A stretch of 64,000 nucleotides of DNA from an uncultured Rickettsiales bacterium (GTDB lineage: Bacteria > Myxococcota_A > UBA796 > UBA9615). Under the pieces are notes generated by a model. The model did not search any database and was not told the DNA's origin. It saw only the letters and a list, made by a program, of their open reading frames with translations. Position numbers and translations under genes: made by a program. The stretch spans positions 6,771-70,770 of the forward strand of contig CAZEKB010000023.1 in assembly GCA_964512225.1 (NCBI GenBank), in the 5' to 3' direction. Below are positions 8,596-64,000 of this stretch, piece by piece. Each line of letters opens with the position of its first letter. The first letter of the stretch is position 1.

Positions 8596-8608
8596 GCCGG
8601 CGACGCGC

Positions 8609-9352: not shown

Positions 9353-9452
9353 CGGCGGGGACTCTACGCGTGCCCGGGGGGTCCGCACCAGTCGGCGGGG
9401 CCCCCGGGGGGGGCGAGGGCAGCCGACGCGGCAGCGGGCTATCATCGGCGCC

Positions 9453-12624: not shown

Positions 12625-12678
12625 GGGCGAAGGGTAGCGGCGCGCGGTAGAACCGGGGGCCCCGCCGGGAGGTTCTTC

Positions 12679-22366: not shown

Positions 22367-22370
22367 AGGC

Positions 22371-24164: not shown

Positions 24165-24736
24165 ATCGGCTCGCGGCCCTCTTCGCCGCGCTGTGCGCCT
24201 GCGCCCTGATCCTCGGCGCGGGGGCGTGCGATCAGGCCGAGTGCGAGACGTCCGCCAACTGCCCCCAGGGCGAGGTGTGCAACGCCGACGGGCGGTGCGA
24301 GATCCAGACCTGCGGCAGCTCCCTGGACTGCAACATCGAGGAGTTCTGCGACTTCGAGAGCGGCAACTGCACCAGCGGCTGCCTGAACGACCGCGACTGC
24401 CTCCCCACGCACGCCTGCGAGACCGAGTCGCGCACCTGCGTGCGCCCGGGCTGTCGAAACACCCAGCTCGACTGCAACATGGGCGAGTTCTGCAACAACC
24501 TCACGGGCGAGTGCTACGACGCCGGGGGGTTCTACTGCTCCACGTGCGAGAGCAGCGAAGACTGCGGCTCCGCCAACAACGTGTGCCTGCGCATGGGCGG
24601 CTCGAACCAGACCTACTGCGGCGTCGACTGCTCCGGCGGTCAGGAGTGCCCGCGCGGGTACGAGTGCGCGCGCGTGCGCAGCCTGGGGGACGTGACGGTC
24701 GGCTTCCAGTGCATCGCCGCCTGCTGGGAGCTCTGA
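24161..24736 (+). CDS. Small cysteine-rich lipoprotein (191 aa; five C-x3-DC-x5-C-x5-C modules)
   Basis: ATGA overlap with the VWA gene. N-terminus MNRLAALFAALCACALILGAGAC. Contains 30 Cys. Confidence 0.7.
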   Translation: MNRLAALFAALCACALILGAGACDQAECETSANCPQGEVCNADGRCEIQTCGSSLDCNIEEFCDFESGNCTSGCLNDRDCLPTHACETESRTCVRPGCRNTQLDCNMGEFCNNLTGECYDAGGFYCSTCESSEDCGSANNVCLRMGGSNQTYCGVDCSGGQECPRGYECARVRSLGDVTVGFQCIAACWEL

Positions 24737-24740
24737 GACC

Positions 24741-27632: not shown

Positions 27633-27717
27633 CCGCGACACCCGCTCCTTCGTCGCTTATGTTGTAGGCGTTCAGGATCCCCGCCCGCCGATCGGCGAGC
27701 GGTCTGCAGGAGTTCGA

Positions 27718-28515
27718 ATGGCCCCCAAGGCGCTCCCCGACGGATACCACCTCTCGCTCTCCATCTCCCAGTCGCTGTGGTCCGACCTGCTGGGACAAGC
27801 CCTCCCGATCCAGGTCGGGACCGGCGAGTTCGAGCTCATCGAGCAGAGCCGCAAGCTGCTGCACATGGCCGAAGACCAGGTGAAGGGGCTGCTCACCGGC
27901 GCCGGCGAGGCCATGGACTCGGCCCCCGTCATCGGCGGGTCCGTGGGCAAGGGCGTGCGCGGCAAGCTCAAGGGCGTGGCCAAGCGGGGCCGGAACTTCC
28001 TCTCGCGCAAGGTCGAGGAGAGCGTGAAGGTCACGGGCAACTGGAAGGTCAACGTCGCCAAGGACGGCAGCTCGTTCGACTACCACGACGACGGAGTCAC
28101 CCTGGACGCGCGCGTCGGCGTGGAGGTCGAGGGCCGGGCCCTGCTGCTGGGCGACCAGTTCGAGATCCCGTTCACGATCACGCACGACGTCAACGGCACC
28201 GCCTCCCTGGACGAGGTGGGCTTCAACAGCGACCGCAACCAGCTCGAGGGCAGCCTCGGCAGCGTGTCGCTGTCCCTGGGTGAGAGCCTCCCCCTGCGGC
28301 TGCTGAAGACCGTCGCCGACCGGCTGATCGAGCAGCAGATCATCAAGATGAACCCGCTGCCCCTCATCCCGAGCTCGACCATCGAGAACATGGTCCTGCC
28401 CGCGGGCGGGCCGCTGCGGCTGTCGGCCTCGATCGAGGACCTGTTCGTCGGCATCAACGGCGAAGACCTGACGCTGTCCGTCCGCTTCGCGTTCACGGGC
28501 GACGCCGCCGCTTGA
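27718..28515 (+). CDS. Hypothetical cytoplasmic protein (265 aa)
   Basis: GCAGGAG SD 5 nt upstream of the ATG. Composition is normal. The stop overlaps the downstream start (TTGA). Confidence 0.55.
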   Translation: MAPKALPDGYHLSLSISQSLWSDLLGQALPIQVGTGEFELIEQSRKLLHMAEDQVKGLLTGAGEAMDSAPVIGGSVGKGVRGKLKGVAKRGRNFLSRKVEESVKVTGNWKVNVAKDGSSFDYHDDGVTLDARVGVEVEGRALLLGDQFEIPFTITHDVNGTASLDEVGFNSDRNQLEGSLGSVSLSLGESLPLRLLKTVADRLIEQQIIKMNPLPLIPSSTIENMVLPAGGPLRLSASIEDLFVGINGEDLTLSVRFAFTGDAAA

Positions 28516-39323: not shown

Positions 39324-40751
39324 GTGCAAACGGCCATCGTTCAGGCGGGGGCGGTCGACGAGTCGCTCGCGCTCTGCGACCTCGCCGGGGAGCTCGGAGC
39401 GGCGGGTCACGACGTCGGGCTCGTCCTCGAGGCGCAGGAGCCGGACTTCGAGGCCGCGGTCGCGCGGCTGGCCCCCGACGTCGTGTTCGTGCAGGCGGCG
39501 TTCATGGGCGAGCAGTGGGTCCGGCGGATCCTCCCCCGCCTGCCCCCGGGCGTCCCCGCCGTCCTCGTGGGCACCGCGGCGACGTTCGACCCCGACCTCG
39601 TCGTGCGGGTGGGGGCCTGGGGCGCGCTCCAGGGAGAGCTCGACGACTCCGGGCCCGCCCTGGTCGCTGCGCTCGCCGGGGGCGACCTCGCCGCCGTCCC
39701 CGGCCTGGTCCGGCCCGACGGCGTCGGGGGCACGACCGGCGTCCCCTGGGGCGATCCCCCGGGCGACCTCGACGTTCGACCGCTCCCGGACCGCGCGCTG
39801 TACTTCGACCGCTACCCCGCCCTCGGCCGGTTCCCCTGGAAGCGGTTCGCGACCGGCCGGGGGTGCGTCCACTCCTGCGGCTTCTGCTACCTGCCCGGCC
39901 TGCGCGAGAGCTACGGCGGGGCCCGCGCGGCGGTGCGGCGCAAGTCGGTGAGCCGGGTCATCGAGGAGGTGCGCGCGGTGCGGGCCCGCTGGCCGCTCAC
40001 GCACATCCACTTCGCCGACGACCTGTTCGCCCCGAAGCGGGCGTGGCTCGAGGAGCTGGCGGAGCGCTTCCCCCGGGAGATCGGCGTCCCCTTCTCCTGC
40101 AATACGTCGCCCGAGACGATCACGGAGCGCAACGCGGTGCTGCTGGGGATCGCGGGCGCGCGCGTGGTGGGGATCGGCCTCGAGACGGGCACCGAGCGCA
40201 ACCGCAGCGAGCTGCTCGGTCGGCCCACGAAGGACGCGGCCATCCGCGCGGCGGCGTCGCGGCTCAAGGCCCAGGGCGTGCGCCTGCTGACGTTCAACAT
40301 GATCGCGAACCCCGGCGAGACGGTGGAGGACGCGATCGCCACCGTGCGGCTCAACCAGGAGCTCGGCACGGACTTCCCCCGCATCAACCTGGCCTACCCC
40401 GCGCCCGGGTCGCACCTGGAGACGCTGATGGCGGAGCGGGGCATCCCCCCGATCGCCCCCGACGCTCACGAGCGCAGCGACTGGCGAGCGTGGTGCGCCG
40501 AGGGCGACCCGGTGCCCTACGAGGTCCTGGCTCGGCTGTTCCGCCTCGCCGTGCGCCGCCGCCTCCCCGAGCCCCTCCTGCGGCGCCTCATGACTCGGAT
40601 CCCGGACGCGAAGTGGTTGCTGCCTCTGGTCTTGTACGATGCGAGCGTCGAGATGCGGTGGAGCGGTGTCCCGTTGTGGGAGGCCGTGCGCTACGGGTGG
40701 CGAGTGGGCCCCCCGAATCGTCGCGTGACGTACCACGAGAGCCTCCCCTGA
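39324..40751 (+). CDS. B12-binding-domain radical SAM protein (class B rSAM)
   Basis: N-terminal Rossmann-like cobalamin-binding-type domain, then GRGCVHSCGFC (the CxxxCxxC rSAM cluster motif). GTG start. 475 aa. Confidence 0.85.
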   Translation: MQTAIVQAGAVDESLALCDLAGELGAAGHDVGLVLEAQEPDFEAAVARLAPDVVFVQAAFMGEQWVRRILPRLPPGVPAVLVGTAATFDPDLVVRVGAWGALQGELDDSGPALVAALAGGDLAAVPGLVRPDGVGGTTGVPWGDPPGDLDVRPLPDRALYFDRYPALGRFPWKRFATGRGCVHSCGFCYLPGLRESYGGARAAVRRKSVSRVIEEVRAVRARWPLTHIHFADDLFAPKRAWLEELAERFPREIGVPFSCNTSPETITERNAVLLGIAGARVVGIGLETGTERNRSELLGRPTKDAAIRAAASRLKAQGVRLLTFNMIANPGETVEDAIATVRLNQELGTDFPRINLAYPAPGSHLETLMAERGIPPIAPDAHERSDWRAWCAEGDPVPYEVLARLFRLAVRRRLPEPLLRRLMTRIPDAKWLLPLVLYDASVEMRWSGVPLWEAVRYGWRVGPPNRRVTYHESLP

Positions 40752-43258: not shown

Positions 43259-45859
43259 ATGACGGAGTCCTCGTCCGCGCGACGAAGCCTCGCCGTCGCG
43301 GCGGGGCGGGGCGCCTTCGCGGCGCCCTTCTTCGTCATGCCGGCGTTCCTCACGATCGACGCGCCGGACCTTCATCAGGGCCACGGAGTCCACGTCCAGG
43401 AGGCGATCGCGCTGGCGCTGCTCGGCGCCGTGATCGGGCTGGTCCGGGGCTTCGACGGGGGCGGGGGCGGGGCGGACTTCCTGCGGCGGCTCGGTCGGGC
43501 GGGGGCCGTGGTCCTGGGCGTCGCCGCGACGATCGCCGCGCTGCCGTGGATCGCCGTGCGGGCCGCCGACCGCGCGGCGGATCTGCTCGACGTCTTCCCC
43601 GCCGACGCTTACGGCTGGGGCGACCGGTACGTGCCGGACGCGCCGACCCTCGTCTTGATCGCGCTGGTCGCGATCGGCGAAGCGATCCGACGGCATCGCG
43701 GCGTCGCGTACGCGGGCCCGCACGTGGCCCTGATCGCCTGCGTCGGGGTCGCCGGGGCGCGGTTGGCCGAGCTCGCCGCCGTCGCCGGACCCGTCCCGCG
43801 GTGGGCGCTTTGGGGCCTCCTCGCCGCGCTGCTCCTGCCCCGGGGCGTGGCCTGGGAGGAGGCCCTCGACGCCGTCCCGGCCCGGGCGGCCCTGGCCGTC
43901 GCGGGCGTGCTCGCGGTGGGGGCCGTCGCCCCCCCGACGCTGCCGTCGCTGTTGCTCGACGCGGCGGTGGTCGCCATCGCCTGGAGGTTCGGCCAGTCCG
44001 GGCGCGGCGCGCTGCGGATCCCGCCGGAGCTGAGCACCCTCGGCTTCGCGGCGGCCGCGGTCTTCCTCGTCCCCGCGGCCTGGCTGCTGCTCACCGTGAT
44101 CCCCGCGGCGGCCGGGGCGCTTGCCTCGCTCTTCCCGGCCGAGCACCCGGACGGCTTCCGCGCCTTCGCCGCCTGGGTTCGCGTCCCCGCCATCGGCTTC
44201 GGGCTCGTGGGGCTCGCGCACGTCGTCCGCGGGGGCGATCGGCGCTGGGTCCTGGGGGCCGGGGCGTGGATCGCCGTGGGGTTCGTCGGCGCCGCCCTCG
44301 TGGGGGTGCTGTACGGCACGCCGGCGGCCGATCTCGCCTCGATCCTGCCGTCGCTCGGCGCGGGCGTCGCCGCCATCGCGCTCCTCCGCGGCCCCTCGCC
44401 GGCGGGGCGCGCGCTGGGGGCGGGCCCGGTGGTCCTGGCCGCCGTCGTGGGGGCGACCGCGGGGCGGATCGTATGCGCCTCCTTCCTCCCGATGATGTCG
44501 CCGGTCGCCTTGCAGCTCGGCGTCGGCGCGCTGATCGGGGGCTTCGCGGGTCGAGCCCTGGCGGGTCGACTCGAGGGGCCGCCCGACGCCCCCTGGGGGT
44601 ACGCGGGCACCCTCTTCGTGTGGGTGTATTCGGCCTACCTGCCCATGTTCGTGGCCGTCGCCTACGGGCTGCATCGGGAGTGGGTCCTGGCGGTGCTCGC
44701 GGTGGCCGCCGTCGTGCTCGCCACGACTCGGGTGCGGGCCCGCTGGGTGGTGTACGGCTGCTTCTACGCGACGTTCGCGATCGTCGCTTCGTTCAAGACG
44801 GGCCCGTCCGAGCAGCACTGCGCGACGGTGGCGGCGACGGGGGGCGCCGACCTGGTCTTCCCCCGGTTCGGGGCCGATCACGACCGCACCCTCGTGGAGC
44901 CCTACGACGTGCTCCCCGTGCGGGGGACGTCCCACGTGATCGTGGCGCAGAAGCGGTACCAGAAGACGGGCGGGCACCTCGCGCTGATCGACGTCGAGCG
45001 AGGCGTGGAGACGGGGCGGCTGCGGCCGGGCGACCTCCGCGTCCCCGGCAGCCCGGCCACCTGGCCCGAGCGGATGGAGTGGGACCCCCGGCGCGGCACC
45101 GCGTGGGTGCAGATCCTCGCCGGGGACAGCTACTCGATGTGGGAGGTCGCCGCGACGCCGGCGACGGCCCCGACCCGGCTCGAGCTCCGGCGGCGCGTGC
45201 CCCTGCTGTGGGAGCCCGGGAGCCCCGGCATCGACGAGCGCCTCGATCGGCTCGTGGTGTCGCTCGTGCCCAACCGGGAGGAGAGCGCGCCCCCGCTGCT
45301 CGGCGCGTACGACCTCGAGACGCTCAAGGGCCGGCTGCCCGACCGACTCGCCGACGACGCGCGGGGCGTGTTCGAGATGGCCGACTACGTGGCCGTCGAC
45401 GCGTGGTCGGGTGCCTACTACGTGCCCGCGTTCATCGACCTCGTCCGCTTCGCGATCGTGGAGGTGAGCGCGGAGGACGGGCGCAGCCTTCGCCGTCGGG
45501 AGACCTTCCACCCCACCGTGGGCCTCGCCGCCGACGGGCGCCGGGGGCGGATCCACCTCACCAACTCGATGGCGAGCACCCTCGACATCCGGTCCACGGC
45601 GGACCTCCGCCTCCTGCAGCGCCTGCCCACGGGGGCGTTCCCCCGGGACGTCGTCTTCGACGCCGACCGGGGCCTGCTCTTCGTCGCGGGGTACGGCGAC
45701 GGCGTGGTCACCACCTTCGACGTCGCCGGCGCGGAGGCCCGCCCCGTCGCGGAGGTCCGCCTGGGCCCCCTGCTCCGCGGGTTGGGGCTGGATCCCGTGA
45801 GCGGGCGCGTCTTCGGCGCGTCGGGGTGCGGGGTCTTCGAGGTGCCGACGGCCCGGTGA
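43259..45859 (+). CDS. Membrane protein: N-terminal about 12-TM domain plus C-terminal β-propeller-like domain (866 aa)
   Basis: Hydrophobic Ala/Gly/Leu/Val-rich N-terminal half with many predicted helices. The C-terminal half is soluble. Starts 10 nt after the RCC1 gene. Confidence 0.55.
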   Translation: MTESSSARRSLAVAAGRGAFAAPFFVMPAFLTIDAPDLHQGHGVHVQEAIALALLGAVIGLVRGFDGGGGGADFLRRLGRAGAVVLGVAATIAALPWIAVRAADRAADLLDVFPADAYGWGDRYVPDAPTLVLIALVAIGEAIRRHRGVAYAGPHVALIACVGVAGARLAELAAVAGPVPRWALWGLLAALLLPRGVAWEEALDAVPARAALAVAGVLAVGAVAPPTLPSLLLDAAVVAIAWRFGQSGRGALRIPPELSTLGFAAAAVFLVPAAWLLLTVIPAAAGALASLFPAEHPDGFRAFAAWVRVPAIGFGLVGLAHVVRGGDRRWVLGAGAWIAVGFVGAALVGVLYGTPAADLASILPSLGAGVAAIALLRGPSPAGRALGAGPVVLAAVVGATAGRIVCASFLPMMSPVALQLGVGALIGGFAGRALAGRLEGPPDAPWGYAGTLFVWVYSAYLPMFVAVAYGLHREWVLAVLAVAAVVLATTRVRARWVVYGCFYATFAIVASFKTGPSEQHCATVAATGGADLVFPRFGADHDRTLVEPYDVLPVRGTSHVIVAQKRYQKTGGHLALIDVERGVETGRLRPGDLRVPGSPATWPERMEWDPRRGTAWVQILAGDSYSMWEVAATPATAPTRLELRRRVPLLWEPGSPGIDERLDRLVVSLVPNREESAPPLLGAYDLETLKGRLPDRLADDARGVFEMADYVAVDAWSGAYYVPAFIDLVRFAIVEVSAEDGRSLRRRETFHPTVGLAADGRRGRIHLTNSMASTLDIRSTADLRLLQRLPTGAFPRDVVFDADRGLLFVAGYGDGVVTTFDVAGAEARPVAEVRLGPLLRGLGLDPVSGRVFGASGCGVFEVPTAR

Positions 45860-45902
45860 GTCGCGCCGGCGACACGCGCGCGCCGCCCCGTGATAGACCC
45901 CC

Positions 45903-46775
45903 GTGATGCTTCGCCTCCTGCTGTTCGCCTCGTTGCTTTCGCTGGCGGTCGGATGCCCGGCCGAGCGACCCAGCGAAACCCCCGCTCCCGCAGGCCCCTC
46001 CGCGTCGCCTTCCGAGGTCCGGCCCCGGGCGGTGACCGTGAGCGTTCGCCCCCACGCGACGCTGCCGTCGGAGTCCGCCCTCGTCTTCCTGGGCTTCGCC
46101 GACGCGGACGTGGACGGCGGGCACCCGAAGCAGCGCAAGCTGCCGAACTGGTACTGGAGCAGCGAGCGGCTCGAGATCCGGCCCGAGATGAAGCTCCAGG
46201 TCGACATGCCCGACCGGACGAACCTCATCGTGATCGTCGACGCCAACGAGGACGGGCGGCCTTCGCCCGGAGAGCGAAGCACCCAGATGCTCCGCGGACC
46301 CGGCGACGCGGCGACCTTCACGGCGACGATCGATCGTTCGTTCGGGGAGCTGTGGGGGGACGTGCGCCTCAGCGACGTCGACCCCTCCGAGGGTTCGGGC
46401 GTGGACGCGGCGCCGGGCCGCAGCACGACGTTCCGGATCGACGCGGATCCGCGGGTCAAGGTCGCGGGGGGGAGCATCCTGTTCGTGGGCTACGAGGACA
46501 CCGAGCTCGAGGGCGGCAAGCCCATGCCCGACGCGCAGGCCTGGTTCTTCTGGAGGGTGATCCAGGACGAGATCACCTGGCCGATGACGGTCGCCGCGCG
46601 CGTCCCCCGCGAGGGCAAGTACTTCGTGGTGGTCGATCTCGACGGGGACGCGCAGGCCGGCCTCGGGGATCTCACGACCCCGGCGCTCGCCCCTCCGGAC
46701 CCCCGGACCGGGACGGACGCGCTGGAGGTGGTCCTGGACCGGACGTGGACCTTCGCCGAGGAGGAGGAGGAGTGA
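45903..46775 (+). CDS. Lipoprotein (290 aa), function unknown
   Basis: N-terminus MMLRLLLFASLLSLAVGC. Ends EEEEE*, overlapping the hslO start. Confidence 0.65.
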   Translation: MMLRLLLFASLLSLAVGCPAERPSETPAPAGPSASPSEVRPRAVTVSVRPHATLPSESALVFLGFADADVDGGHPKQRKLPNWYWSSERLEIRPEMKLQVDMPDRTNLIVIVDANEDGRPSPGERSTQMLRGPGDAATFTATIDRSFGELWGDVRLSDVDPSEGSGVDAAPGRSTTFRIDADPRVKVAGGSILFVGYEDTELEGGKPMPDAQAWFFWRVIQDEITWPMTVAARVPREGKYFVVVDLDGDAQAGLGDLTTPALAPPDPRTGTDALEVVLDRTWTFAEEEEE

Positions 46776-54299: not shown

Positions 54300-56402
54300 A
54301 TCGCTCGTTTCGAGCCCGGACAACAGATCGGGACGTACACCCTGCGGCGCAAGCTGGGGCAGGGTGCGTACGCCGAGGTGTGGCTGGCCGTCCAGGAGGG
54401 GGGCACGCTCGGCTTTCGCAAGAAGGTCGCGCTGAAGCTCGTCCGTCCGGGCAAGGAGGACGACGACGACGAGACCCAGGCCTTCCTCCGCGAAGCGAGC
54501 CTGGTCGCCAACCTGCGGCACCCCAACATCGTCGACACGCTGAGCGTCTCCCAGGAGGGCGGCACGCTCCACATCGCGATGGAGTTCGTGGACGGCGGCA
54601 CGCTCCACGACCTCGTGAACCGGTGCCTGCGGTTCGGGCTCGCGCTCCCGAACTCCGTGGTGTGCTCGCTCCTGATCGACATCTGTCGCGGCCTCGCCGC
54701 GGCCCACGAGGCGGAGGACGTGGACGGTCACCCCCTCAAGGTGATCCACCGGGATCTCAAGCTCGGCAACGTGCTGCTGGACAAGACCGGGGTCGCCAAG
54801 GTCGCGGACTTCGGCATGGCCAAGGCGGCGGGGGACATGACCGCCACCGCCACCGGCTTCGTGAAGGGGACGCCCGCGTACGTCGCCCCCGAGGTCTGGG
54901 AGGGGGCGCGTGAGTTCACCCCCGGCGTCGACCTGTTCGCGGTCGGGTGCATCGCCTACTCGCTGGTCACGCGCAAGCGGCTCTTCGACGGCGAGAACGT
55001 CGCGTCGATCTACGGGCAGATCTGCAAGCGGAGCCCCGAGCAGGAGTCCGCTCCGGTGGGCGACAAGTACCCCGGCCTCGCCCCCATCACCGAGAAGCTC
55101 CTCCAGCGAGACCCGGCCGATCGGTATCAGCGGGCCAAGGACGTCGCCGACGACCTGCTCGAGCTCCTCCGGCGGACGCCCGCGGCGGGGGAGATCCACG
55201 ACTTCCTGTGGCTGCTCGACCGGATCGAGGCGTACGAGTCCGACGTGGACGCCGAGGACGAGACGCACGGGGCGGCCCCGTTCAAGATCCCCGAGCAGAC
55301 CGAGGCGGGCTGGGCCGTCGCCATCGAGCGCGCGCTGGGGCAGAGCGTGGGCGTGCTCCCCCTGGCGACGTCCGGCGGCGCGGTGGAGCTGCCCACCCCC
55401 GAGCGACCGCCCTCGAACAAGCCCGTCCAGCTGACCGCGCCCCAGGCTTCGGCGGTCGAGGGTCCCCCGCCCACGCCGCCGACCCCGCCGCCGAAGAGCG
55501 GGGAGGTCCTGCGCACCCAGCTCCTGCCGCCCCGCGACTCCGAGGGTGCGGGCGAGCGCACGTCGATGAACGTCGAGCTCGCCCTCAAGGCGGACAAGAG
55601 CGCGCGGATCGAGGCCCGCAAGCGCAAGCAGCGGGTGGTGCAGTCCCGCCGTCGGCTGCAGATGGTGATCCTCGTGCTGGTGGGCGTGCTGGCGGTGATC
55701 GGCGGCCTCATCCTCGGCCGGGAGGACACCGAGGAGGGGGCCGGGGAGTCGGCCGAGCAGGGGGAGCCGGCGGCGGTGCCCGACCTGATGATCGTGCGGG
55801 ACGACGGGGAGGAGGCGTCCGGCGAGGCGTCTCCGGACCCGGCCTCGGGCGAAGCGGCGGGCGAAGAGCCGGCGGATGCGAGCCCGGAGGCGGGGTCGTC
55901 CGAGGAGGCCGAGGGGACGCCGGGGGCGGACGCCGACGCGGCGGACGCGGAGCCGGAGGCGACCCCGGCGGACGGGGATGCGCCCGGGGAGGACGCCGAG
56001 GCCGCGGGGGAGGACGCCGAAGCGCCTGCCGAAGAGGGCGAGGCGGCCCCCGACGGCGAGGCCGCGGGCGACGGTGGGAGCGAGACCGAGGACCCGGCCG
56101 CCGAGACCGAAGCGACCCCCGCCGAGGCGGGCTCGACCGACGCGTGCGTCGTGGTCAGCGCCTCCCCCCGGGGGGCGAAGGTCTGGATCGACGGAGCGCT
56201 GAACGACCGGTCCGCGGGGTCGCCGTTCGGGGTCGTGGTCCCCGCCGGTGAGCATCGCGTGCAGATGGGGATGGTGAGCACCCCGAGCGTCGAGCAGACG
56301 GTCACGATCGGGGGCGGCGAGGCCAAGTCCGTGCACTGCACGCTCACGGGCGAAGCGGGCTGTCGCACCGCCGCCGCCGACATCGCCGCCTGCGGGCTCT
56401 GA
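54300..56402 (+). CDS. Ser/Thr protein kinase, single-pass TM, acidic low-complexity spacer, C-terminal PEGA domain
   Basis: Kinase motifs HRDLKLGN, DFG, GTPAYVAPE. TM helix MVILVLVGVLAVIGGLILG. PEGA-like SPRGAKVWIDGALNDRSAGSPFGVVVPAGEH. The first canonical start is GTG at 54378, which is downstream of the glycine-rich loop (GQGAYAEV); the listed start assumes an ATC at 54300 preceded by a GGAGG. Confidence 0.7.
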   Translation: MARFEPGQQIGTYTLRRKLGQGAYAEVWLAVQEGGTLGFRKKVALKLVRPGKEDDDDETQAFLREASLVANLRHPNIVDTLSVSQEGGTLHIAMEFVDGGTLHDLVNRCLRFGLALPNSVVCSLLIDICRGLAAAHEAEDVDGHPLKVIHRDLKLGNVLLDKTGVAKVADFGMAKAAGDMTATATGFVKGTPAYVAPEVWEGAREFTPGVDLFAVGCIAYSLVTRKRLFDGENVASIYGQICKRSPEQESAPVGDKYPGLAPITEKLLQRDPADRYQRAKDVADDLLELLRRTPAAGEIHDFLWLLDRIEAYESDVDAEDETHGAAPFKIPEQTEAGWAVAIERALGQSVGVLPLATSGGAVELPTPERPPSNKPVQLTAPQASAVEGPPPTPPTPPPKSGEVLRTQLLPPRDSEGAGERTSMNVELALKADKSARIEARKRKQRVVQSRRRLQMVILVLVGVLAVIGGLILGREDTEEGAGESAEQGEPAAVPDLMIVRDDGEEASGEASPDPASGEAAGEEPADASPEAGSSEEAEGTPGADADAADAEPEATPADGDAPGEDAEAAGEDAEAPAEEGEAAPDGEAAGDGGSETEDPAAETEATPAEAGSTDACVVVSASPRGAKVWIDGALNDRSAGSPFGVVVPAGEHRVQMGMVSTPSVEQTVTIGGGEAKSVHCTLTGEAGCRTAAADIAACGL

Positions 56403-56429
56403 GCCGCGCGGCAGTCCGAAGCCGCTGCA

Positions 56430-56578
56430 GGCGGCAAGAACCCGGGTGTTTCTCCGAACCGGGCGCGTTGTTGCCGGTTCTGCGGCAAGAACTCGGGTGC
56501 TTCTCCGAACCGGGCGCGTTGTTGCCGGTTCTGCGGCAAGAACTCGGGTGTTTCTCCGAACCGGGCGCGTTGTTGCCG
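56430..56578. repeat. Intergenic tandem direct repeat, 51-bp unit × about 2.9
   Basis: gcggcaagaac(c/t)cgggtg(t/c)ttctccgaaccgggcgcgttgttgccggttct repeated at 56430, 56481 and 56532. Each junction forms a TTGCCG-gttctg-CGGCAA hairpin. Confidence 0.75.
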
Positions 56579-56600
56579 CCTCGCGCCTACCGGATCCCCC

Positions 56601-56981
56601 TCAGTCGTCGGCGAAGCCCGCGCGCGAGACGTCGCGGAACGTCGCTTCGACGTGGGTCAGCACGCCCCGATCGGAGCTGTAGACCTCGAACGACGTCCCG
56701 TCGATCGCGCGGATGAGGAGCCACGGCGCGCTCGCGCCCGACCGGCGCGCCTCGAAGTCGCCCTCGACGGTGCGATCGATGCCCGCGACCAGCTCCAGGA
56801 ACTCCGCGCCGGGGATGTCCAGGCCCTCGTCCGCCGCGTGCTCCAGCGCCTGCATCGCCGCGCCCTCGACCTCGACGTACCGGCACCGCCACGTGGACCG
56901 CAGCGCGTCCTTTTCGCAGAGCTGCAGGATGTCGTCGAGGTCGAGTCCCCCGTCGTCGTTCGCGATCTGCACTCCGCGCAT
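56601..56981 (-). CDS. Small hypothetical protein (126 aa) divergent from the ECF σ gene
   Basis: ORF with balanced composition. The overlapping longer ORFs are Arg-rich. Confidence 0.4.
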   Translation of the reverse strand: MRGVQIANDDGGLDLDDILQLCEKDALRSTWRCRYVEVEGAAMQALEHAADEGLDIPGAEFLELVAGIDRTVEGDFEARRSGASAPWLLIRAIDGTSFEVYSSDRGVLTHVEATFRDVSRAGFADD

Positions 56982-57103
56982 GGCGCCTCCGTGCGGAGCA
57001 TGTCCCCGTCGCCGTCCTCACACAAATCTCTGACAAGGCCGCGACAATTCCGTACCGGTCCCTGACACCGAAGCGCAGGGGGCTGGATAGGCTGACTCGG
57101 CCG

Positions 57104-57718
57104 ATGCGGACGCCGCTGCCCCCGGACGCCGAGCTCATCGCCGCGCTGCGCGGCGGGGACGATGCCATGTTCGGGGCGATGCTCGACCACTGGACGCCGA
57201 GCCTCCGCCGCCTCGCCCGGTCGTTCGTGCGCACCGACGCGTCGGTCGAGGACGTGGTCCAGGAGACCTGGGCGGCGGTCGTGAAGGGCCTCGCCCGCTT
57301 CGAGGGGCGCAGCTCGCTCAAGACCTGGGTGTTCACCATCCTCGCGAACCGCGCGCGGACCCGGGGCGCCAAGGACGCGCGGACGGTCCCCGAGTCGGCC
57401 CTGTCCGAGCCCGGGGAGGCCTCTCCGATCGCCGATCGGTTCACCGATCGGGGGACGTGGCTGAAGCCGCCTCGACGATGGCAGGACTTCTCGGCCGAGG
57501 CCGTGACCCTGTCCAAGGAGACGGCGGAAGCCCTCGAGGCGGCCATCGAGGCGCTCCCTCCGCGCCAGCGGGCGGTCGTACTCCTGCGTGACGTGGAGGG
57601 CGTCGAGGCGCAAGATGCGTGCAACCTTCTGGAGATCAGCGAATCCAACCAGAGGGTGCTACTTCACCGCGGACGCAGTCGGTTGCGCTCGGCGCTGGAG
57701 CAGCACCTCGGAGAGTGA
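57104..57718 (+). CDS. ECF (σ70 family group IV) RNA polymerase sigma factor
   Basis: σ2 region VQETWAAVVKGLARFEG…WVFTILANRARTR and σ4 region RQRAVVLLRDVEGVEAQDACNLLEISESNQRVLLHRGRSRLR. Confidence 0.85.
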   Translation: MRTPLPPDAELIAALRGGDDAMFGAMLDHWTPSLRRLARSFVRTDASVEDVVQETWAAVVKGLARFEGRSSLKTWVFTILANRARTRGAKDARTVPESALSEPGEASPIADRFTDRGTWLKPPRRWQDFSAEAVTLSKETAEALEAAIEALPPRQRAVVLLRDVEGVEAQDACNLLEISESNQRVLLHRGRSRLRSALEQHLGE

Positions 57719-57730
57719 CCGACCCGGACG

Positions 57731-58039
57731 ATGCCGCTGATCTCGACCTGCAAGGACCTCACCGAGAACGCCGACGCCTACCTGGCCGGCGACCTGGGGT
57801 GGTTCGCGCGCGCCCAGGTCCGGCTGCATCTGTGGATGTGCGACCACTGTCGCCGGTACGTGGACCAGCTCGCGGCCACGATCGCCGCGCTGAAGGCGAT
57901 GCCCGCGCCCGAAGGGCCGCCCCTCGCCGAGCCCGTCCGTGAGGAGCTGATGACGTCGTTCCGGTCGCTCGAGGCGAAGGCGATCGTCGACGCCGAGGAG
58001 GCCTCGGACGCCTCCACCGACCCCGGTCCGTCGGGCTAG
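57731..58039 (+). CDS. Zinc-finger anti-sigma factor (ZAS family)
   Basis: HLWMCDHCRRY is the HxxxCxxC ZAS motif. Lies 13 nt downstream of the σ gene. Confidence 0.8.
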   Translation: MPLISTCKDLTENADAYLAGDLGWFARAQVRLHLWMCDHCRRYVDQLAATIAALKAMPAPEGPPLAEPVREELMTSFRSLEAKAIVDAEEASDASTDPGPSG

Positions 58040-59031
58040 GCCAGCGCCCCCCCGCAGCTGGAGCCCGCGCCCGCGGTGCAGCCGAAGCAGTGCTTCGCCA
58101 CCGCGATCGGACGCTCGGCCAGCTCCTGGAAGCTCCGGACGTCCCACACCGTGCGGGCCCCCACGGCGTCGAGGAGCGGCAGCTCCAGCATCTGGTTGAA
58201 GTCGCAGTCGTACATCCGCCCGCGCCAGTCGATGGAGACGAGGCTGCGGCACATCAAGCCGTCGACCGTGCCCGGGTTGAACGACTCGAGCAGCAGCGCC
58301 TCGTACTCCTCGCGCTTGCCGTCGCGCTCGAGATCGTGGAGGAAGCGGCTGATGGGCATGTTCGTGATCGTGATCAGGTTGCTGAACTCGACGCCGAAGT
58401 CTTCGCGCAGGCGGCGCTTGTAGTCGGCCTCCAGGCCCGCCTGGGCGGGGGGGAGGAACGGACCGCCGGGGTTGTAGACGAGGTCGAGCACGCCGCCCCC
58501 GGGCACGCCGATCCCGGCCGCGTTGAGCTTCGTGAGCGCCTCGATGCTCTTCGTGAACACGCCCCCGCCGCGTTGCTTGTCGACGTTCTTCTCCGAGTAG
58601 CAGGGCAGGCTCGCGGTGACCTCCACGCCCGCCCGCGCCAGGAAGTCGACCAGGTCGTCCTGGCCGGGCTCGAAGAGCACGGTGAGGTTGCAGCGATCGA
58701 TCACGCGCTTGCCGAGCCCTCGGGCCGCCGCTACGAGCCGACGGAAGTCGGGGTTGAGCTCCGGCGCGCCGCCCGTGAGGTCCACGAGCTCCACCTCGGG
58801 CGCCCCCTCGAGCAGCTCGATGAGCCGGTCGACGGTGTGCGACTCCATGATCTCGGTGCGCTTCGGGCCCGCGTCCACGTGGCAGTGACGGCAGGCCTGA
58901 TTGCACAGCTTGCCCAGGTTGACCTGCAGCCAGGTCACGGGCGCCGCGCGCAGCGGGCCCAGGTCGTGAGCGCGCAGCGTGCGCTCGAACGGAGCGGGGT
59001 CGTGGGACAGGACGGCAAGCGCGGTCGACAA
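58036..59031 (-). CDS. Radical SAM/Cys-rich domain protein (TIGR04167-like, ArsS-like (seleno)protein family)
   Basis: TTG start with an AGGAG 8 nt upstream that overlaps the upstream stop. LQVNLGKLCNQACRHCHVDAGP (rSAM CxxxCxxC). C-terminal KHCFGCTAGAGSSCGG Cys cluster. Confidence 0.75.
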   Translation of the reverse strand: MSTALAVLSHDPAPFERTLRAHDLGPLRAAPVTWLQVNLGKLCNQACRHCHVDAGPKRTEIMESHTVDRLIELLEGAPEVELVDLTGGAPELNPDFRRLVAAARGLGKRVIDRCNLTVLFEPGQDDLVDFLARAGVEVTASLPCYSEKNVDKQRGGGVFTKSIEALTKLNAAGIGVPGGGVLDLVYNPGGPFLPPAQAGLEADYKRRLREDFGVEFSNLITITNMPISRFLHDLERDGKREEYEALLLESFNPGTVDGLMCRSLVSIDWRGRMYDCDFNQMLELPLLDAVGARTVWDVRSFQELAERPIAVAKHCFGCTAGAGSSCGGALA

Positions 59032-59040
59032 GGAGCTCTC

Positions 59041-60930
59041 CTAGGGCTGGAGCTTGGATTCACGGGCGCCCGGCTGCAAGCCCAGCGCGGCCTCCACGAC
59101 GCCCGCGAGGACGTCGGGTCGGTGGAGCGACGCGAGGTGCACGACGTCGCCTTCGCGGTCGACGACGACCTGCCGGGGGTACGGGGAGATCGACTCGGGG
59201 AAGGCGTACGCGCTGCGTGAGCCGTCGTCCCAGGCGAGGGGGAAGGTGACGCCCGTGACCTCGCGGAACGACCGCAGCAGGGCGTCCGTCTCGGCCACCT
59301 GGCCGGACGCGACTCCGATCAGCACGAGCCCGTCGTCCGCGTAGGCCTGGTGGAAGGCCGACTCCAGGTCCGGAAACTCCAGACTGCACACGGGTCAGAA
59401 GGTGGCGAAGTAGGCGAGGAGCACGACGCTCCCGCGCAGGTCTTCGAGGGCGATCGCGGGGCCGTCGATGTCGTCGAAGACGGACGCGGCCGCGGGCTCA
59501 CCGACCCCGATCCCGGGCATGTTCGCCTCGACGTGAAGCCGGAGCTCGGGCTGGTCCGGGTCGTCCGTGAGGAGGAGGACGTCGGTGCTCACGCCCGCGT
59601 CGGTGATCGAGTCGTAGGTGACGGTCGCGGTCGCGGTCTCCCCGGGCGCGAGCACCTCCGGCACCTCCACCGAGAGCTCCTCGATCCGGGGGTCGACGCC
59701 GCGGAACGTGAGCTCGGTCTCTCCGCCGTTGGTGACCCGCACCGGAAACGACGAGGAGCTGCCCGGGGGCGTGCTCGAGAACAGCACCGGGTTGGGCGAC
59801 ACCTCGAGGTCCGGGGCCGCGCGGTCCGGGAACCACCGATACGAGACGAGCTCGGTCCAGTTGCCCGAGAAGATCACGTCTTCGTGGGTGGCGATGCCCA
59901 TCGTCCGGCTCTCCCGGCGATCGCTCGGGCCCAGCGGCAGGGGCTCGCGCGCGACGGGCAGCAGGGCCTTGGGCGTCACCTCGAACACGCGGACGTCGGC
60001 CCAGTCGGCGAGCGCGATCGCGGGTCGGTCCGAGGCCGACGGGGGTCGGAGCCAGGCCACGGCCGTGCCCGCGCCGGGGGTGTCGACGGCGTGCAGCAGC
60101 GTCGGCGCCGACGGGTCCTCGAGCGCGACGACGCCCACCCCGGCCGTCCCCATCGCGACCCCCAGGACGGGGGGGAGGCCCGCGTCGGCGTGCGCTCGCG
60201 CCGTCTGCTCGGAGGGCAGGGCCAGGTCCTTGGCCGCGCCCTGCAGCGGGAGCGTGTGCAGCACGGTGGGCGCCGCCGGGTCCGCGAGGTCGACGGTGAC
60301 GAGGCCCCCCGCCCCGTCCGCGACCCAGGCGCGATCGCCCCGCGCGGCCACGGCCCACGCGTTCGTCGTGGGGGCGCGCCCCAGCTCGACGAGGTCGCCG
60401 CCCTCGCGTCGATGGACGATCAGCCCCGCCTCGTGGGCCGCGAGCAGGAGCAGGTCGCCGTGGATCGTCATGCCCTCGGGGTTCTCGGGGATCGGGTGCA
60501 TGCCGATCTCGTCGGGGCGCTCCACGTCGGTCAGGTCGGCCACGCCGATCCACGACTGCGGCTGCATCGAGTTCGCGCGGTTCGTGACGTAGGCCCGTCG
60601 CTGGTCGTCGACCACCACGTGCTGGCACCGGGGGAAGCTCCGGCTGCCCAGGGAGAAGCCGATGCGGCTGCGGTAGTCCAGGTCCTCGGGGTCCGAGGCG
60701 TCGTACACGTTCATCCCCAGCACGCCGCTGCAGAAGTAGACGAGGCCGTCGCGGTACTCGACCTCGTTCAGCTCGCTGAAGGACGGGCCGCCGTAGGTGT
60801 CCAGCACCTCCACCGGATCGCCGTAGGGGGACTCGTACTCGGGGGGCGTGGCCCCGTCGGGAGGGTCCTCCGGTCCGTCGGGGACGCAGCCCACGAGGGC
60901 GATCAGGGCGATGGCGGGGAGATGCCTCAC
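59041..60930 (-). CDS. Candidate selenoprotein: lipoprotein with β-propeller-like domain fused to a TlpA/thioredoxin-like redoxin domain with a U-P-V-C active site (in-frame TGA at 59395-59397)
   Basis: GTG start at 60930 (GGAGG upstream). N-terminus MRHLPAIALIALVGC. The tool ORFs 59395..60930 and 59041..59391 share one frame and are separated by TGA-CCC. The read-through …VVLLAYFATF-U-PVCSLEFPDLE… matches the thioredoxin-fold WCxxC region. Confidence 0.5.
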
Positions 60931-60960
60931 GCACCTCCGAGTCTGCCCGGAGGGCGGAGG

Positions 60961-61512
60961 TTACGGGCGCGCGGTGGGCAGGAGCGTCGCCAGGGCCGTC
61001 AGCTGGGCGCCGAGGTCGACCGAGTCCGGGTCGAGGTGGCGCAGCACGAAGATGCCGAAGAAGAAGCTCAGCACCGTGGACGCCCCCGCCGGATCGAGGC
61101 CGAGGCGGTCCGACAGGACGCCCCGGTAGGCGGCGACGTTCTCGAGGATGATCCCGCGGACCTCGTCTCCCTCCTGGCGGCTGAAGTCGAGCGCCACCAG
61201 CAGGGAGCGCTGCAGGTCGTCCGCCCGCCCGACGATGAACGCGGCGGTCGCGGCGGCGGCGGTGGCGGGGTCGGCGCCGGCCGGGATCCGCTCGTACGCC
61301 TCGGCGACGTCGCGGCCCACGCGGCGGGCGTACATCGCCTGGGCCATGGCGACCTTGCCCTCGAAGTAGTGGTAGAGCGTGCCCGTCGACACCCCGAGCT
61401 CGCGGGCGATCCCGCGCATCGTCAGGGCGCTCCAGCCCCGCTCGGCGAAGAGCTCGAAGGCTCCGTCCAGCAGCTCTGCGCGGCGGGCATCGTGATCGAC
61501 GATTCGGGGCAA
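60961..61512 (-). CDS. TetR/AcrR family transcriptional regulator
   Basis: HTH: ALTMRGIARELGVSTGTLYHYFEGK. Confidence 0.85.
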   Translation of the reverse strand: MPRIVDHDARRAELLDGAFELFAERGWSALTMRGIARELGVSTGTLYHYFEGKVAMAQAMYARRVGRDVAEAYERIPAGADPATAAAATAAFIVGRADDLQRSLLVALDFSRQEGDEVRGIILENVAAYRGVLSDRLGLDPAGASTVLSFFFGIFVLRHLDPDSVDLGAQLTALATLLPTARP

Positions 61513-61525
61513 CGACTCTCCGGGG

Positions 61526-62578
61526 TCAGGCGGCCAGGCGCGCCTGCTCGCGAACGATCTGCCGATCCATGACCGAGTGGAACACGGGGGGCAGCAGCGC
61601 CAGCAGGATCATGCCCGGATACCCCGTCGGCAGCTGGGGGCCGCCTTCGTGGTGTCGCAGCTGGGCGAAGTGACGACGCGCGTTGGCGTGGTGATCGGCG
61701 TGCCGGGTGAGCTCGAACAGCAGCGCGCGTCCGATGGTGTGGTTGCTGTTCCAGCTGTGGGCGGGGAGGACCCGACCGAGGCGGCCGTCGGCGCGGCGAT
61801 CGCGGCGCAGACCGTAGTGCTCGACGTAGTTGATGGTCTCCAGCAGCAGGAACCCGACGATCGCCGAGCCCACGAACGCGAGCGCGGGGACGAGGCCGAA
61901 CACGACACCCACGCCGGCGACCATCGCGACCTGGATCAGCTGGAAGCGGAGCATCTCGTTGCGCAGCGACAGCGTGGGGTTCGCGACCTTGCGACCGAGC
62001 CGCTGGGCCTCGAGCTCCCAGGCGTGCAGCCAACCCCCGATCGAGCTGCGGAGCCAGAAGCGGTACACGGACTCCCCGCGGCGCGAGGTGGCGGGGTCGT
62101 CCTCCGTGGCCACGCGGGCGTGGTGGCCGCGGTTGTGCTCGATGATGAAGTGCATGTAGAGGCTGGTCGCGAGCAGCACCTTCGCCGCGGCCTGGTCGAG
62201 CTTGTTCGCGCGGTGGCCGAGCTCGTGGCCGAGGTTGATGCCGAACGCGCCGCAGCAGATCCCCACGGTGAAGATCGCGCCCGCGATCTCCCACCCCGTG
62301 AGCGCGCCCGCCGCGATCTGCGCGGGCAGGTAGGCGACGAGGCCGATCTGCAGGGGGATGAGCCCGTAGACGAGGGCGTCCAGCCCGCGCCTGCGCAGGG
62401 GGGTCGGATCGGCCTCGGCGCGGGTGTTGTCCGTCGTGCCGGTGAAGACCAGCTCGGCGAGGGGGATCAGGCCGAACGCCACGGCGGGCAGCGCGAGCAG
62501 CCAGGCGCCTCCGAGGTGGAGGGCGACGAAGGCGATCGCGGGGAAGGCGTAGACGAAGAGGTAGGTGGCGGGGTGCAT
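61526..62578 (-). CDS. Membrane fatty-acid desaturase/alkane 1-monooxygenase (AlkB)-like di-iron enzyme
   Basis: His boxes HELGHR, EHNRGHH and NYVEHYGL…HADHH, with about 6 TM segments. Confidence 0.8.
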   Translation of the reverse strand: MHPATYLFVYAFPAIAFVALHLGGAWLLALPAVAFGLIPLAELVFTGTTDNTRAEADPTPLRRRGLDALVYGLIPLQIGLVAYLPAQIAAGALTGWEIAGAIFTVGICCGAFGINLGHELGHRANKLDQAAAKVLLATSLYMHFIIEHNRGHHARVATEDDPATSRRGESVYRFWLRSSIGGWLHAWELEAQRLGRKVANPTLSLRNEMLRFQLIQVAMVAGVGVVFGLVPALAFVGSAIVGFLLLETINYVEHYGLRRDRRADGRLGRVLPAHSWNSNHTIGRALLFELTRHADHHANARRHFAQLRHHEGGPQLPTGYPGMILLALLPPVFHSVMDRQIVREQARLAA

Positions 62579-62690
62579 CGGGGCTGCTTTCGGTCGAATC
62601 GTGCCTGGGATTTATTTCGAACGCTCGTTATAAAAACAGAGAGATCCGGGAGGGTCAACAGATTTCTCGACGCTGCCCTAGGCTCCCGAC

Positions 62691-63608
62691 ATGACACGAC
62701 CTGCGCGCGTTCTGATCACCGGGGGGACCGGGCTCGTCGGCCGACGCCTGGCCGCGGCCCTGATCGAGGACGGCTCGGAGGTCGTGGTGCTGTCCCGCGA
62801 CGCGGCGGCCGCCCGGGAGCGGGTGCCGGGGGCCGAGGCCTTCGACTGGGCGCCCGAGGAGGGCCCGCCGCCGACCGAGGCGTTCGCGGGCGTGGACGCG
62901 GTCGTGAACCTCGCGGGGGAGCCCGTCGACGGCCGCTGGACCGCCGTCAAGAAGGGACGGATCCGCGAGAGCCGGGTGGCGGGGACGGCCAACCTGGTCA
63001 CCGCGCTCGCGCGCCTGCCCGACGACGCGCGCCCGGGCGTCCTCGTCTCGGCCTCGGCGATCGGCTACTACGGGGAGACCGGGGACGACGAGAAGACGGA
63101 GACGTCACCGTCCGCGGACGAGTTCCTGGGCGAGGTGTGCGCGTCCTGGGAGGCGGCCGCCGAAGCCGCCGAGGGCCTCGGCCTGCGGGTCGTGCGGCTG
63201 CGCATCGGGCTGGTGCTCGACCCGTCGGGGGGCGCCCTGGCCAAGATGCTGCCCCTGTGGAAGCTCGGCCTCGGCGGACCGATGGGCGGGGGGCGTCAGT
63301 GGGTCGCGTGGATCCACCGCGCGGATCTCGTGCGCCTGATCCGGTTCGCGATCGGGAGCGACGTGTCGGGGCCCCTCAACGCCACCTCTCCGCACCCGGT
63401 GCGCCAGGCGGAGCTGGCGGCGGCGCTCGGGAGGGCCCTGGGTCGGCCCGCGTTCATGCCCGCGCCCGCCTTCGCGCTGAAGGTGGCCCTCGGCGAGTTC
63501 TCGGTGGAGGTCCTGGGCAGCCGACGCGTCGTCCCGGATCGCACGCTGGCCGTCGGCTTCGAGTTCGCCTTCCCCACCCTCGAGGCCGCGCTCGAGGACC
63601 TTCTCTGA
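62691..63608 (+). CDS. TIGR01777 (YfcH-like) NAD-dependent epimerase/dehydratase family protein
   Basis: VLITGGTGLVGRRL… Rossmann fold plus the C-terminal DUF1731-like region. Confidence 0.85.
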   Translation: MTRPARVLITGGTGLVGRRLAAALIEDGSEVVVLSRDAAAARERVPGAEAFDWAPEEGPPPTEAFAGVDAVVNLAGEPVDGRWTAVKKGRIRESRVAGTANLVTALARLPDDARPGVLVSASAIGYYGETGDDEKTETSPSADEFLGEVCASWEAAAEAAEGLGLRVVRLRIGLVLDPSGGALAKMLPLWKLGLGGPMGGGRQWVAWIHRADLVRLIRFAIGSDVSGPLNATSPHPVRQAELAAALGRALGRPAFMPAPAFALKVALGEFSVEVLGSRRVVPDRTLAVGFEFAFPTLEAALEDLL

Positions 63609-63642
63609 ATAACCGCGCGGCGACCCTCGTCACTCCTTGCAA

Positions 63643-63659
63643 CGGCCCTCTCGGGCCCG
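63643..63659 (+). promoter_or_regulatory. GC hairpin (CGGCCC-tctc-GGGCCG) in the 5' leader, followed by a GGAGG SD
   Basis: Perfect 6-bp inverted repeat 14 nt upstream of the ATG at 63673. No U-tract follows, so it is not a canonical terminator. Confidence 0.3.
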
Positions 63660-63672
63660 TGGAGGTGAGACG

Positions 63673-64000
63673 ATGCTACGCACCCTGTTGATCTCGGCGC
63701 CCGCGACGCTGCTGCTGCTGCTGCTGACGGCGGCCGGTCCGGCCCTGGCGCAACCGACCGGCGCGCCCACCTCGGGGGACGCCTCCCCCGCGGACGACCT
63801 CGACGAGCTCGAGGAGCAGGCGAAGCAGGATCACTCCCGCAAGGCCCGGGACCGTCGCTCCCGCAAGCGTCGAGCCCATCGCCACCGCCACCGCCACCGC
63901 CACGGCTGCGGCCACGTCGTGCTCCGCCATCGAACGGCGCGGCCCCGCATCGTCGTCGAGGAGGAGCCGGTGGTCGTCGCCCACGGCAACAAGCGACCCC
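63673..64000 (+). CDS. Secreted protein with HRHRHRHRH His/Arg repeat (5' partial; runs off the window)
   Basis: GGAGG SD 7 nt upstream of the ATG. Signal peptide MLRTLLISAPATLLLLLLTAAGPALAQP. Confidence 0.5.
   Translation, partial: MLRTLLISAPATLLLLLLTAAGPALAQPTGAPTSGDASPADDLDELEEQAKQDHSRKARDRRSRKRRAHRHRHRHRHGCGHVVLRHRTARPRIVVEEEPVVVAHGNKRP

Follow-up and report, generated by a model that had tools for sequence, protein, structure and literature searches.

In the 64,000-nucleotide stretch of contig CAZEKB010000023.1 analysed here (hereafter the window), from an uncultured bacterium of the lineage Myxococcota_A, a gene of the ArsS family of radical S-adenosylmethionine (SAM) proteins closes a string of tightly spaced, co-directional genes on the minus strand, consisting of an AlkB-like hydroxylase, a TetR-family regulator, a lipoprotein redoxin with a predicted selenocysteine (Sec) residue, and ArsS. 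The gene and its ribosome-binding site are placed as follows.

58036..59031, minus strand: arsS, an ArsS-family radical SAM protein in the cysteine (Cys) form, 331 aa, TTG start (from the open reading frame (ORF), TIGR04167, and Pfam)
59038..59042, minus strand: AGGAG, ribosome-binding site of arsS (read from the sequence)

An earlier reading of the letters alone (the sequence-only reading) had assigned this protein to the TIGR04167/ArsS family from its radical SAM motif and C-terminal Cys cluster, and searches with profile hidden Markov models (HMMs) bore the assignment out. With NCBIfam, the window protein matches TIGR04167, "arsenosugar biosynthesis radical SAM (seleno)protein ArsS", an equivalog model with a curated cut-off of 300 bits, at 422.2 bits (E = 1.1e-126) and from end to end (model positions 2-303 of 303), while the runner-up radical SAM model reaches 41 bits. 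Pfam returns Radical_SAM and DUF3641 (PF12345, 177 bits). Both of the features pointed out in that reading are present, namely LQVNLGKLCNQACRHCHV, with its CX3CX2C at C43, C47, and C50, three cluster Cys that are invariant in 84/84 aligned family sequences, and the C-terminal Cys cluster HCFGCTAGAGSSCGG; the Cys set of DUF3641 is complete (C261, C276, C315, C318, and C326), and the protein ends in HCFGCTAGAGSSCGGALA. The family is very large, with at least 8000 candidate database homologues at E <= 1e-10, and the best 120 of these span several phyla and share 61-83% identity with the window ArsS; for the 80 genome loci described below, the figure is 50-67%. The standard annotation already names the gene correctly as ArsS.

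In the 84-sequence alignment, the window ArsS retains 85 of the 86 columns with at least 95% conservation and all ten conserved Cys, the sole deviation being Y174I; other members, including those linked to arsM, show 0-2 deviations. Its root-to-tip distance in a neighbor-joining tree, 0.202, is among the shortest, and its companions there are members linked to ArsM, to the TIGR04282/TIGR04283 transferases, and to a flavin adenine dinucleotide (FAD) disulfide oxidoreductase. On these measures the window ArsS is an ordinary family member that has not diverged. The statement that some TIGR04167 members are selenoproteins is supported by the literature, which gives AAR34688.1 with the motif GxxU as an example of the Sec form (PMC13188914, PMC9312934). 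The Sec of these members stands in place of the final conserved Cys, that of the C-terminal GSSC; the window protein belongs to the same family but has Cys326 there (GSSC326GG) and is thus a Cys form. A TGA at this last conserved C-terminal Cys was found in none of the 87 ArsS loci examined.

A sequence search of the PDB returned no solved ArsS structure and a single weak match, SkfB. The AlphaFold model of the window ArsS (predicted local distance difference test 80, predicted template modeling score 0.83) shows a partial barrel of the radical SAM type, extended at the C-terminus, and its template modeling score against SPASM/twitch-type radical SAM enzymes (SkfB, BlsE, SuiB, MoaA, and PqqE) is about 0.5. 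The predicted structure confirms the fold and is uninformative on the substrate.

We regard the TTG start as credible because the ORF extends just three codons 5' of it, because the N-terminus that it yields is conserved, (M/L)S(T/S)AL being kept in ArsS relatives of 69-83% identity, and because TTG is also the arsS start in locus L001 and in the relatives P0006 and P0007 (in the latter two, the first residue in the alignment is L). The next possible start is internal, and its use would cut conserved N-terminal residues. The TTG start with an AGGAG overlapping the redoxin TAG, and the tight co-directional junction that this makes, were also read correctly from the letters: the minus-strand junction is C-TAG-GAG-AGC-TCC-TTG, in which the AGGAG overlaps the TAG stop at 59041-59043 and lies 6 nt from the TTG. 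The spacer from the redoxin TAG to the arsS TTG is 9 nt, and both genes share one reading frame. At L001, GGAGA lies 5 nt ahead of the arsS TTG and the spacer past the redoxin stop is 19 nt. Translational coupling of arsS to the redoxin gene is plausible from these junctions. At its other end, arsS meets a convergent anti-sigma factor gene, whose stop codon overlaps that of arsS in the palindromic CTAG at 58036-58039. Terminators have no space between the transcription units there.

The sequence-only reading took ArsS to be normally paired with the methyltransferase ArsM and pointed out the lack of arsM here. To put numbers on this pairing, we drew on 80 ArsS genome loci from many phyla, clustered every ORF lying up to 6 kb from ArsS, and used NCBIfam to name the clusters that recurred; in 44 of the sampled loci, each flank extends for 6 kb or more. 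The recurrent neighbors within 6 kb of ArsS are the following, and HMM searches agree with the partner counts obtained by clustering.

ArsM-like methyltransferase: 27/80 loci
TIGR04282/TIGR04283 transferases: 23/80 loci
FAD pyridine-nucleotide-disulfide oxidoreductase: 22/80 loci
DedA-like membrane protein: 9/80 loci
Extracytoplasmic function (ECF) sigma factor: 7/80 loci

Restricting the count to the 44 loci with full flanks gives ArsM in 15 and no ArsM in 29, and 16 of the 44 have none of the four main partners (ArsM, the transferases, the oxidoreductase, and the DedA-like protein). Loci without partners, like those without arsM, are dispersed over the whole neighbor-joining tree. The general pairing with ArsM does not hold up at these frequencies. 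The lack of a neighboring arsM is the commoner state in the ArsS family, adjacency to arsM is therefore not family-defining, and, with about two thirds of the sampled loci lacking it, a missing arsM is of no use as a signal of novelty.

The observation itself, that arsM is not near this arsS, stood. HMMs built from the 27 ArsM-like neighbors of ArsS found no arsM in the 64-kb window at E < 1e-5, and those of the FAD disulfide oxidoreductase and DedA-like partners had no match in the window either. The same organism's 123-kb contig (L092) has no arsM past the window end, where it carries only hypothetical genes, a two-component system, a GAF-PAS-EAL protein, and an amidohydrolase, so that the arsM-free distance around arsS comes to about 58 kb on one side and about 15 kb on the other. 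No other arsenic gene was found among the window genes scanned, by partner HMMs and by Pfam on 20 further genes, and ArsM is not within reach of ArsS at L001 or L013, two loci taken up below. Two candidate partners in the window were rejected: a tblastn match to ArsM at 8963-9229 is weak, covers a generic domain, and has no ArsM HMM match, and a GT2 match at 9471-10118 (ORF 9183-10184) is generic, with 35 bits versus at least 172 bits for true TIGR04282/TIGR04283 members.

We favor, with a probability of about 0.72, the reading of the window gene as an orthologous Cys-form ArsS, that is, a synthase of 5'-deoxy-5'-dimethylarsinoyl-adenosine (DDMAA) whose substrate would be made by an unlinked ArsM or come from the cell's surroundings. 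In the chemistry described for ArsS, dimethylarsenite (DMAs(III)) is adenosylated to DDMAA (PMC13598754, bioRxiv 10.1101/2022.09.23.509062, PMC12159101). By this scheme the [4Fe-4S] cluster held by CX3CX2C would cleave SAM reductively, the resulting 5'-deoxyadenosyl radical would add onto the arsenic of dimethylarsenite, and the arsenic-centered radical would hand an electron back to the cluster, making the reaction redox-neutral. The product would be DDMAA, the first committed arsenosugar intermediate. The DMAs(III) would be supplied by an unlinked ArsM or by the environment, and arsS would be co-transcribed with the redoxin gene upstream of it.

That redoxin gene has the following features.

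59041..60930, minus strand: lipoprotein (lipobox LVGC) with LVIVD beta-propeller, immunoglobulin (Ig)-like, and AhpC/TSA-type redoxin parts, 629 codons (from translation and Pfam)
59395..59397, minus strand: in-frame TGA (Sec codon) that opens the redox motif UxxC, FATF-U-PVC
59368..59384, minus strand: hairpin GUCUGG-AGUUU-CCGGAC, resembling a selenocysteine insertion sequence (SECIS) element (from homologue alignment)

Pfam identifies LVIVD, a HYDIN-type Ig domain, and AhpC-TSA/Redoxin in the lipoprotein. The sequence-only reading had put this redoxin forward as a Sec candidate, and the candidate gained in strength on comparison. The TGA is present in 24/24 homologous copies of the fetched loci, followed in each by an in-frame P-x-C and about 105 homologous residues, and no Cys-form orthologue was found among these 24 copies or the database homologues. 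All of the database homologues terminate at ...YFATF, and gene callers break each copy in two, into about 490-510 aa and about 85-116 aa. The GC content at third codon positions (GC3) stays high on either side of the TGA. About 25 database clusters represent the family, which is small and comprises about 14 lineages, mostly from marine metagenomes, with F-x-x-F-U-P-x-C as the consensus redox motif. The hairpin begins 10 nt past the UGA and has a 6-bp stem and a 5-nt loop. An Rfam scan of 56000-64000 (E <= 1) gave no match to a SECIS family and one chance match to a long non-coding RNA, and the hairpin was therefore assessed by homologue alignment: it is kept in all six aligned homologues, with one compensatory change of G-C to A-U and changes of U.G to U-A. 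A single-sequence fold of the region past the UGA is not significant (z = -1.66). The window has no tRNA genes, and no selenium-related family was found by Pfam and NCBIfam among its genes scanned. We consider the identification of the lipoprotein redoxin as a selenoprotein to be well supported by the conserved TGA and by the compensatory changes in the hairpin.

Peroxiredoxin-like (Prx-like) thiol:disulfide oxidoreductases with UxxC (pfam00578) are a known kind of selenoprotein (PMC9312934). The C-terminal AhpC-TSA/Redoxin domain of the window lipoprotein, with its U-P-V-C, resembles them, whereas its position behind a lipoprotein signal, an LVIVD propeller, and an Ig-like domain sets it apart. 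We found neither this propeller fusion nor the absence of Cys orthologues described in the reviews PMC13188914 and PMC9312934.

The sequence-only reading saw in the two adjoining genes an unusual two-gene redox/radical module. Neighborhood comparison found the pairing to be sporadic, an outcome that the sequence-only reading had itself named as one that would speak against it: the lipoprotein redoxin adjoins ArsS in 3/84 ArsS loci (the window lineage, L001, and L013 only), and, viewed from the other side, contig look-ups and a metagenome scan placed ArsS nearby in 3 of about 14 redoxin lineages. The eleven other redoxin lineages, with flanks of at least 2 kb each, have no ArsS and no common neighbor. 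At L001, ArsS is 83% identical to that of the window, and the two genes are oriented as they are here. The L013 locus belongs to a complete Myxococcota genome of 6.87 Mb; there the two genes are divergent, the lipoprotein at 8018-9903 on the minus strand and ArsS from 9993 on the plus strand, with an 89-nt spacer; its lipoprotein is 27-39% identical and of a paralogous Sec type (YFALF-U-PICG), and L013 and the window have no neighbor in common beyond ArsS and the lipoprotein. A paralogue of the L013 type also occurs at L105, in tandem with a Sec-lipoprotein of the standard type, with no ArsS nearby.

Two further loci document a loss of the redoxin gene. At L002 and L003, where ArsS is 75% identical, the AlkB-like, TetR, ArsS, anti-sigma, and sigma genes keep the window order, and directly 5' of ArsS lies a 43-aa ORF (L002 2537-2668, L003 705-836) whose final 33 codons come from the end of the redoxin gene and share 58% identity with the window redoxin, with the stop, the ribosome-binding site, and the arsS TTG kept. 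From this remnant it follows that the sister lineage deleted the lipoprotein gene and kept an intact arsS. At L004, with an ArsS of 69% identity, a divergent DUF4331 gene lies upstream of ArsS instead. Other exported redoxins do occur beside ArsS in two Planctomycetota clusters, both of which also carry ArsM: a TlpA-like CxxC protein at L014 9051-9428 (Candidatus Jettenia) and an AhpC-like CxxC protein at L081 11123-11800 (Bythopirellula), each co-directional with ArsS. The adjacency of the Sec redoxin and ArsS is lineage-specific, an arrangement of a few Myxococcota-like genomes from the sea, and no conserved functional module.

The remaining genes around arsS, with the predicted control region of the string, are as follows.

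57104..57718, plus strand: ECF sigma factor (TIGR02937, 82 bits versus a cut-off of 42.9; syntenic in L001 and L002)
57731..58039, plus strand: soluble zf-HC2 (HxxxCxxC) anti-sigma factor (NF052368, PF13490), convergent with arsS
60961..61512, minus strand: TetR-family regulator (PF00440), 30 nt upstream of the lipoprotein gene; synteny in L001 and L002
61526..62578, minus strand: membrane fatty-acid-desaturase/AlkB-like hydroxylase (PF00487, 107 bits), first of the four-gene string
62614..62631, minus strand (within the region 62580-62690): AT-rich palindrome ATAACGAGCGTTCGAAAT, following shortly after TTGACC-N17-TTTTAT, with both conserved in L001 and L002

The AlkB-like translation contains the histidine motifs HELGH, EHNRGHH, and RHADHH. 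Spacers within the string are short throughout, 13 nt between the AlkB-like and TetR genes, 30 nt between TetR and the lipoprotein, and the 9 nt before arsS. The palindrome is unique in the window, where 0.01 chance matches are expected, and together with TTGACC-N17-TTTTAT it is a candidate promoter and TetR operator, probably for the AlkB-like and TetR genes and possibly for the whole four-gene string. With 73% GC, the region 56400-63000 is one in which a scan for sigma-70 promoters and terminators is uninformative.

An adjacent ECF sigma/anti-sigma pair had been pointed out from the letters and is confirmed, in convergent orientation. Besides the window, L001 and L002/L003 have the pair directly next to ArsS. 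At L054, L055, L062, and L083, in other Myxococcota-type metagenome-assembled genomes, related pairs of about 30% identity lie about 1.8-3.9 kb downstream of ArsS, convergent with it and past an FAD oxidoreductase gene, with a DedA-like gene also between in three of the four. These four loci make the ECF sigma pair a neighbor that is retained beside ArsS more widely than is the redoxin. Upstream of the sigma gene lies a conserved motif, CACAAATCYNTGAC, that has no second occurrence in the window, and the proposal that the sigma factor drives arsS was set aside as unsupported.

Several known systems invite comparison with the window locus. The ArsS of Synechocystis sp. PCC 6803 is said to have been characterized as a DDMAA synthase by Xue et al. 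in 2019 and Cheng et al. in 2021. The window protein is like it by way of the TIGR04167 model (radical SAM CX3CX2C plus DUF3641), a comparison made by family and not with the Synechocystis sequence. Cyanobacterial arsS is co-transcribed with a neighboring arsM (bioRxiv 10.1101/2022.09.23.509062); in contrast to the Synechocystis arsM-arsS pair, the window arsS has a Sec-lipoprotein redoxin upstream in place of an adjacent arsM. Clusters of ArsS with TIGR04282/TIGR04283, an FAD oxidoreductase, and a DedA-like protein share an orthologous ArsS and come from related Myxococcota-type metagenome-assembled genomes (L008, L054, L057, L062, and L083), and several of them also carry the convergent ECF sigma pair downstream; by HMM search, however, the window holds none of their partners. 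ArsL of arsinothricin biosynthesis, a non-canonical radical SAM enzyme that transfers a 3-amino-3-carboxypropyl group (PMC12159101), likewise makes a C-As bond but belongs to a separate family, and no ArsL model is among the NCBIfam matches of the window ArsS.

A different account of the locus would make the Sec-lipoprotein redoxin and ArsS a functional pair, in which the exported selenol/thiol redoxin would reduce pentavalent methylarsenicals of seawater, such as DMAs(V), to DMAs(III), or shield the envelope from them, ArsS would adenosylate the DMAs(III), and arsenosugars would be made without ArsM. The tight junctions in the window and L001 favor it, as do the adjacency in three lineages, including the otherwise non-syntenic L013, the lack of an ArsM within reach in all three, the exported CxxC proteins next to ArsS in L014 and L081, and the frequency of the disulfide oxidoreductase beside ArsS in general. 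Nevertheless, the lipoprotein is missing at 81/84 ArsS loci, ArsS is not nearby in 11 of about 14 lipoprotein lineages, and the L002/L003 lineage lost the redoxin gene with its ArsS intact. The two proteins also act in different compartments. ArsS requires cytoplasmic SAM and Fe-S clusters, and the window ArsS has no signal peptide, whereas the lipobox of the redoxin marks it as exported. The presence of ArsM in L014 and L081 means that the redoxin there is no replacement for ArsM, and thioredoxin-fold genes are common enough that, by a rough estimate, a few chance adjacencies would be expected in 84 loci. We consider a functional pair unlikely. Its more specific form, in which marine Myxococcota-like bacteria would use the exported Sec redoxin to reduce environmental dimethylarsinate to dimethylarsenite outside the cytoplasm, with ArsS then making arsenosugars without ArsM, strikes us as quite unlikely; if true, it would amount to a selenoprotein-dependent scavenging route into organoarsenic metabolism.

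Control of the locus by the ECF sigma factor, with the zinc-binding HxxxCxxC anti-sigma factor sensing thiol-reactive trivalent arsenicals and the redoxin-ArsS genes induced in response, would fit the redox-sensing motif, the pair abutting ArsS in the window, L001, and L002/L003, and the related pairs downstream of ArsS-DedA-oxidoreductase clusters. The convergent orientation with overlapping stops, the restriction of CACAAATCYNTGAC, within the window, to the sigma gene, and the sigma-70/TetR-type appearance of the sole conserved promoter-like element of the ArsS string speak against such a regulon, and we hold it to be very improbable. It was through selenoprotein members that the ArsS family was first noticed, and the partner transferases were at first known only by that association, a history that could be counted in favor of a neofunctionalized ArsS paralogue here, with another substrate in place of dimethylarsenite, such as a selenium or sulfur species. 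Such a paralogue would account for both the missing arsM and the selenoprotein neighbor, in a 64-kb window where no arsenic gene was found, and TIGR04167 is given as a selenoprotein family (PMC13188914). A single deviation in 86 columns, in line with arsM-linked members, a short branch nested among arsM-linked sequences, a score far over the equivalog cut-off, and the scatter of loci without arsM over the whole tree all run counter to this, however, and we give it hardly any credence.

The reading of the window gene as an ordinary orthologous DDMAA synthase must itself be set against four points. The L013 pair, adjacent without other synteny and in the opposite orientation, goes slightly beyond simple inherited synteny, and exported CxxC redoxins recur beside ArsS in the two Planctomycetota clusters. 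The DDMAA synthase activity is predicted by orthology, and the DMAs(III) source is our assumption, the arsM scan having covered the window and L092.

Further observations in the window concern regions other than the arsS string. An intergenic tandem repeat at 56431-56578 (51 nt x 2.9 copies, 96% matches) sits between a serine/threonine kinase gene, which ends at 56402, and a 126-aa ORF at 56601-56981 on the minus strand that has no family match. Another, unrelated radical SAM protein (475 aa), matching only Pfam Radical_SAM, is encoded at 39324-40751 on the plus strand beside a 1541-aa ORF. Long high-GC3 ORFs (up to 1010 aa) with no Pfam match at E <= 1e-5 occur at 11974-15006, 21488-28515, and 43259-46775.

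For the family, these results describe an ArsS that occurs widely in non-photosynthetic phyla of sea and soil, often with no arsenic gene linked to it. For the organism, the more interesting object at this locus is the lipoprotein rather than arsS, a member of a small propeller-fused family in which every copy examined carries the Sec codon.

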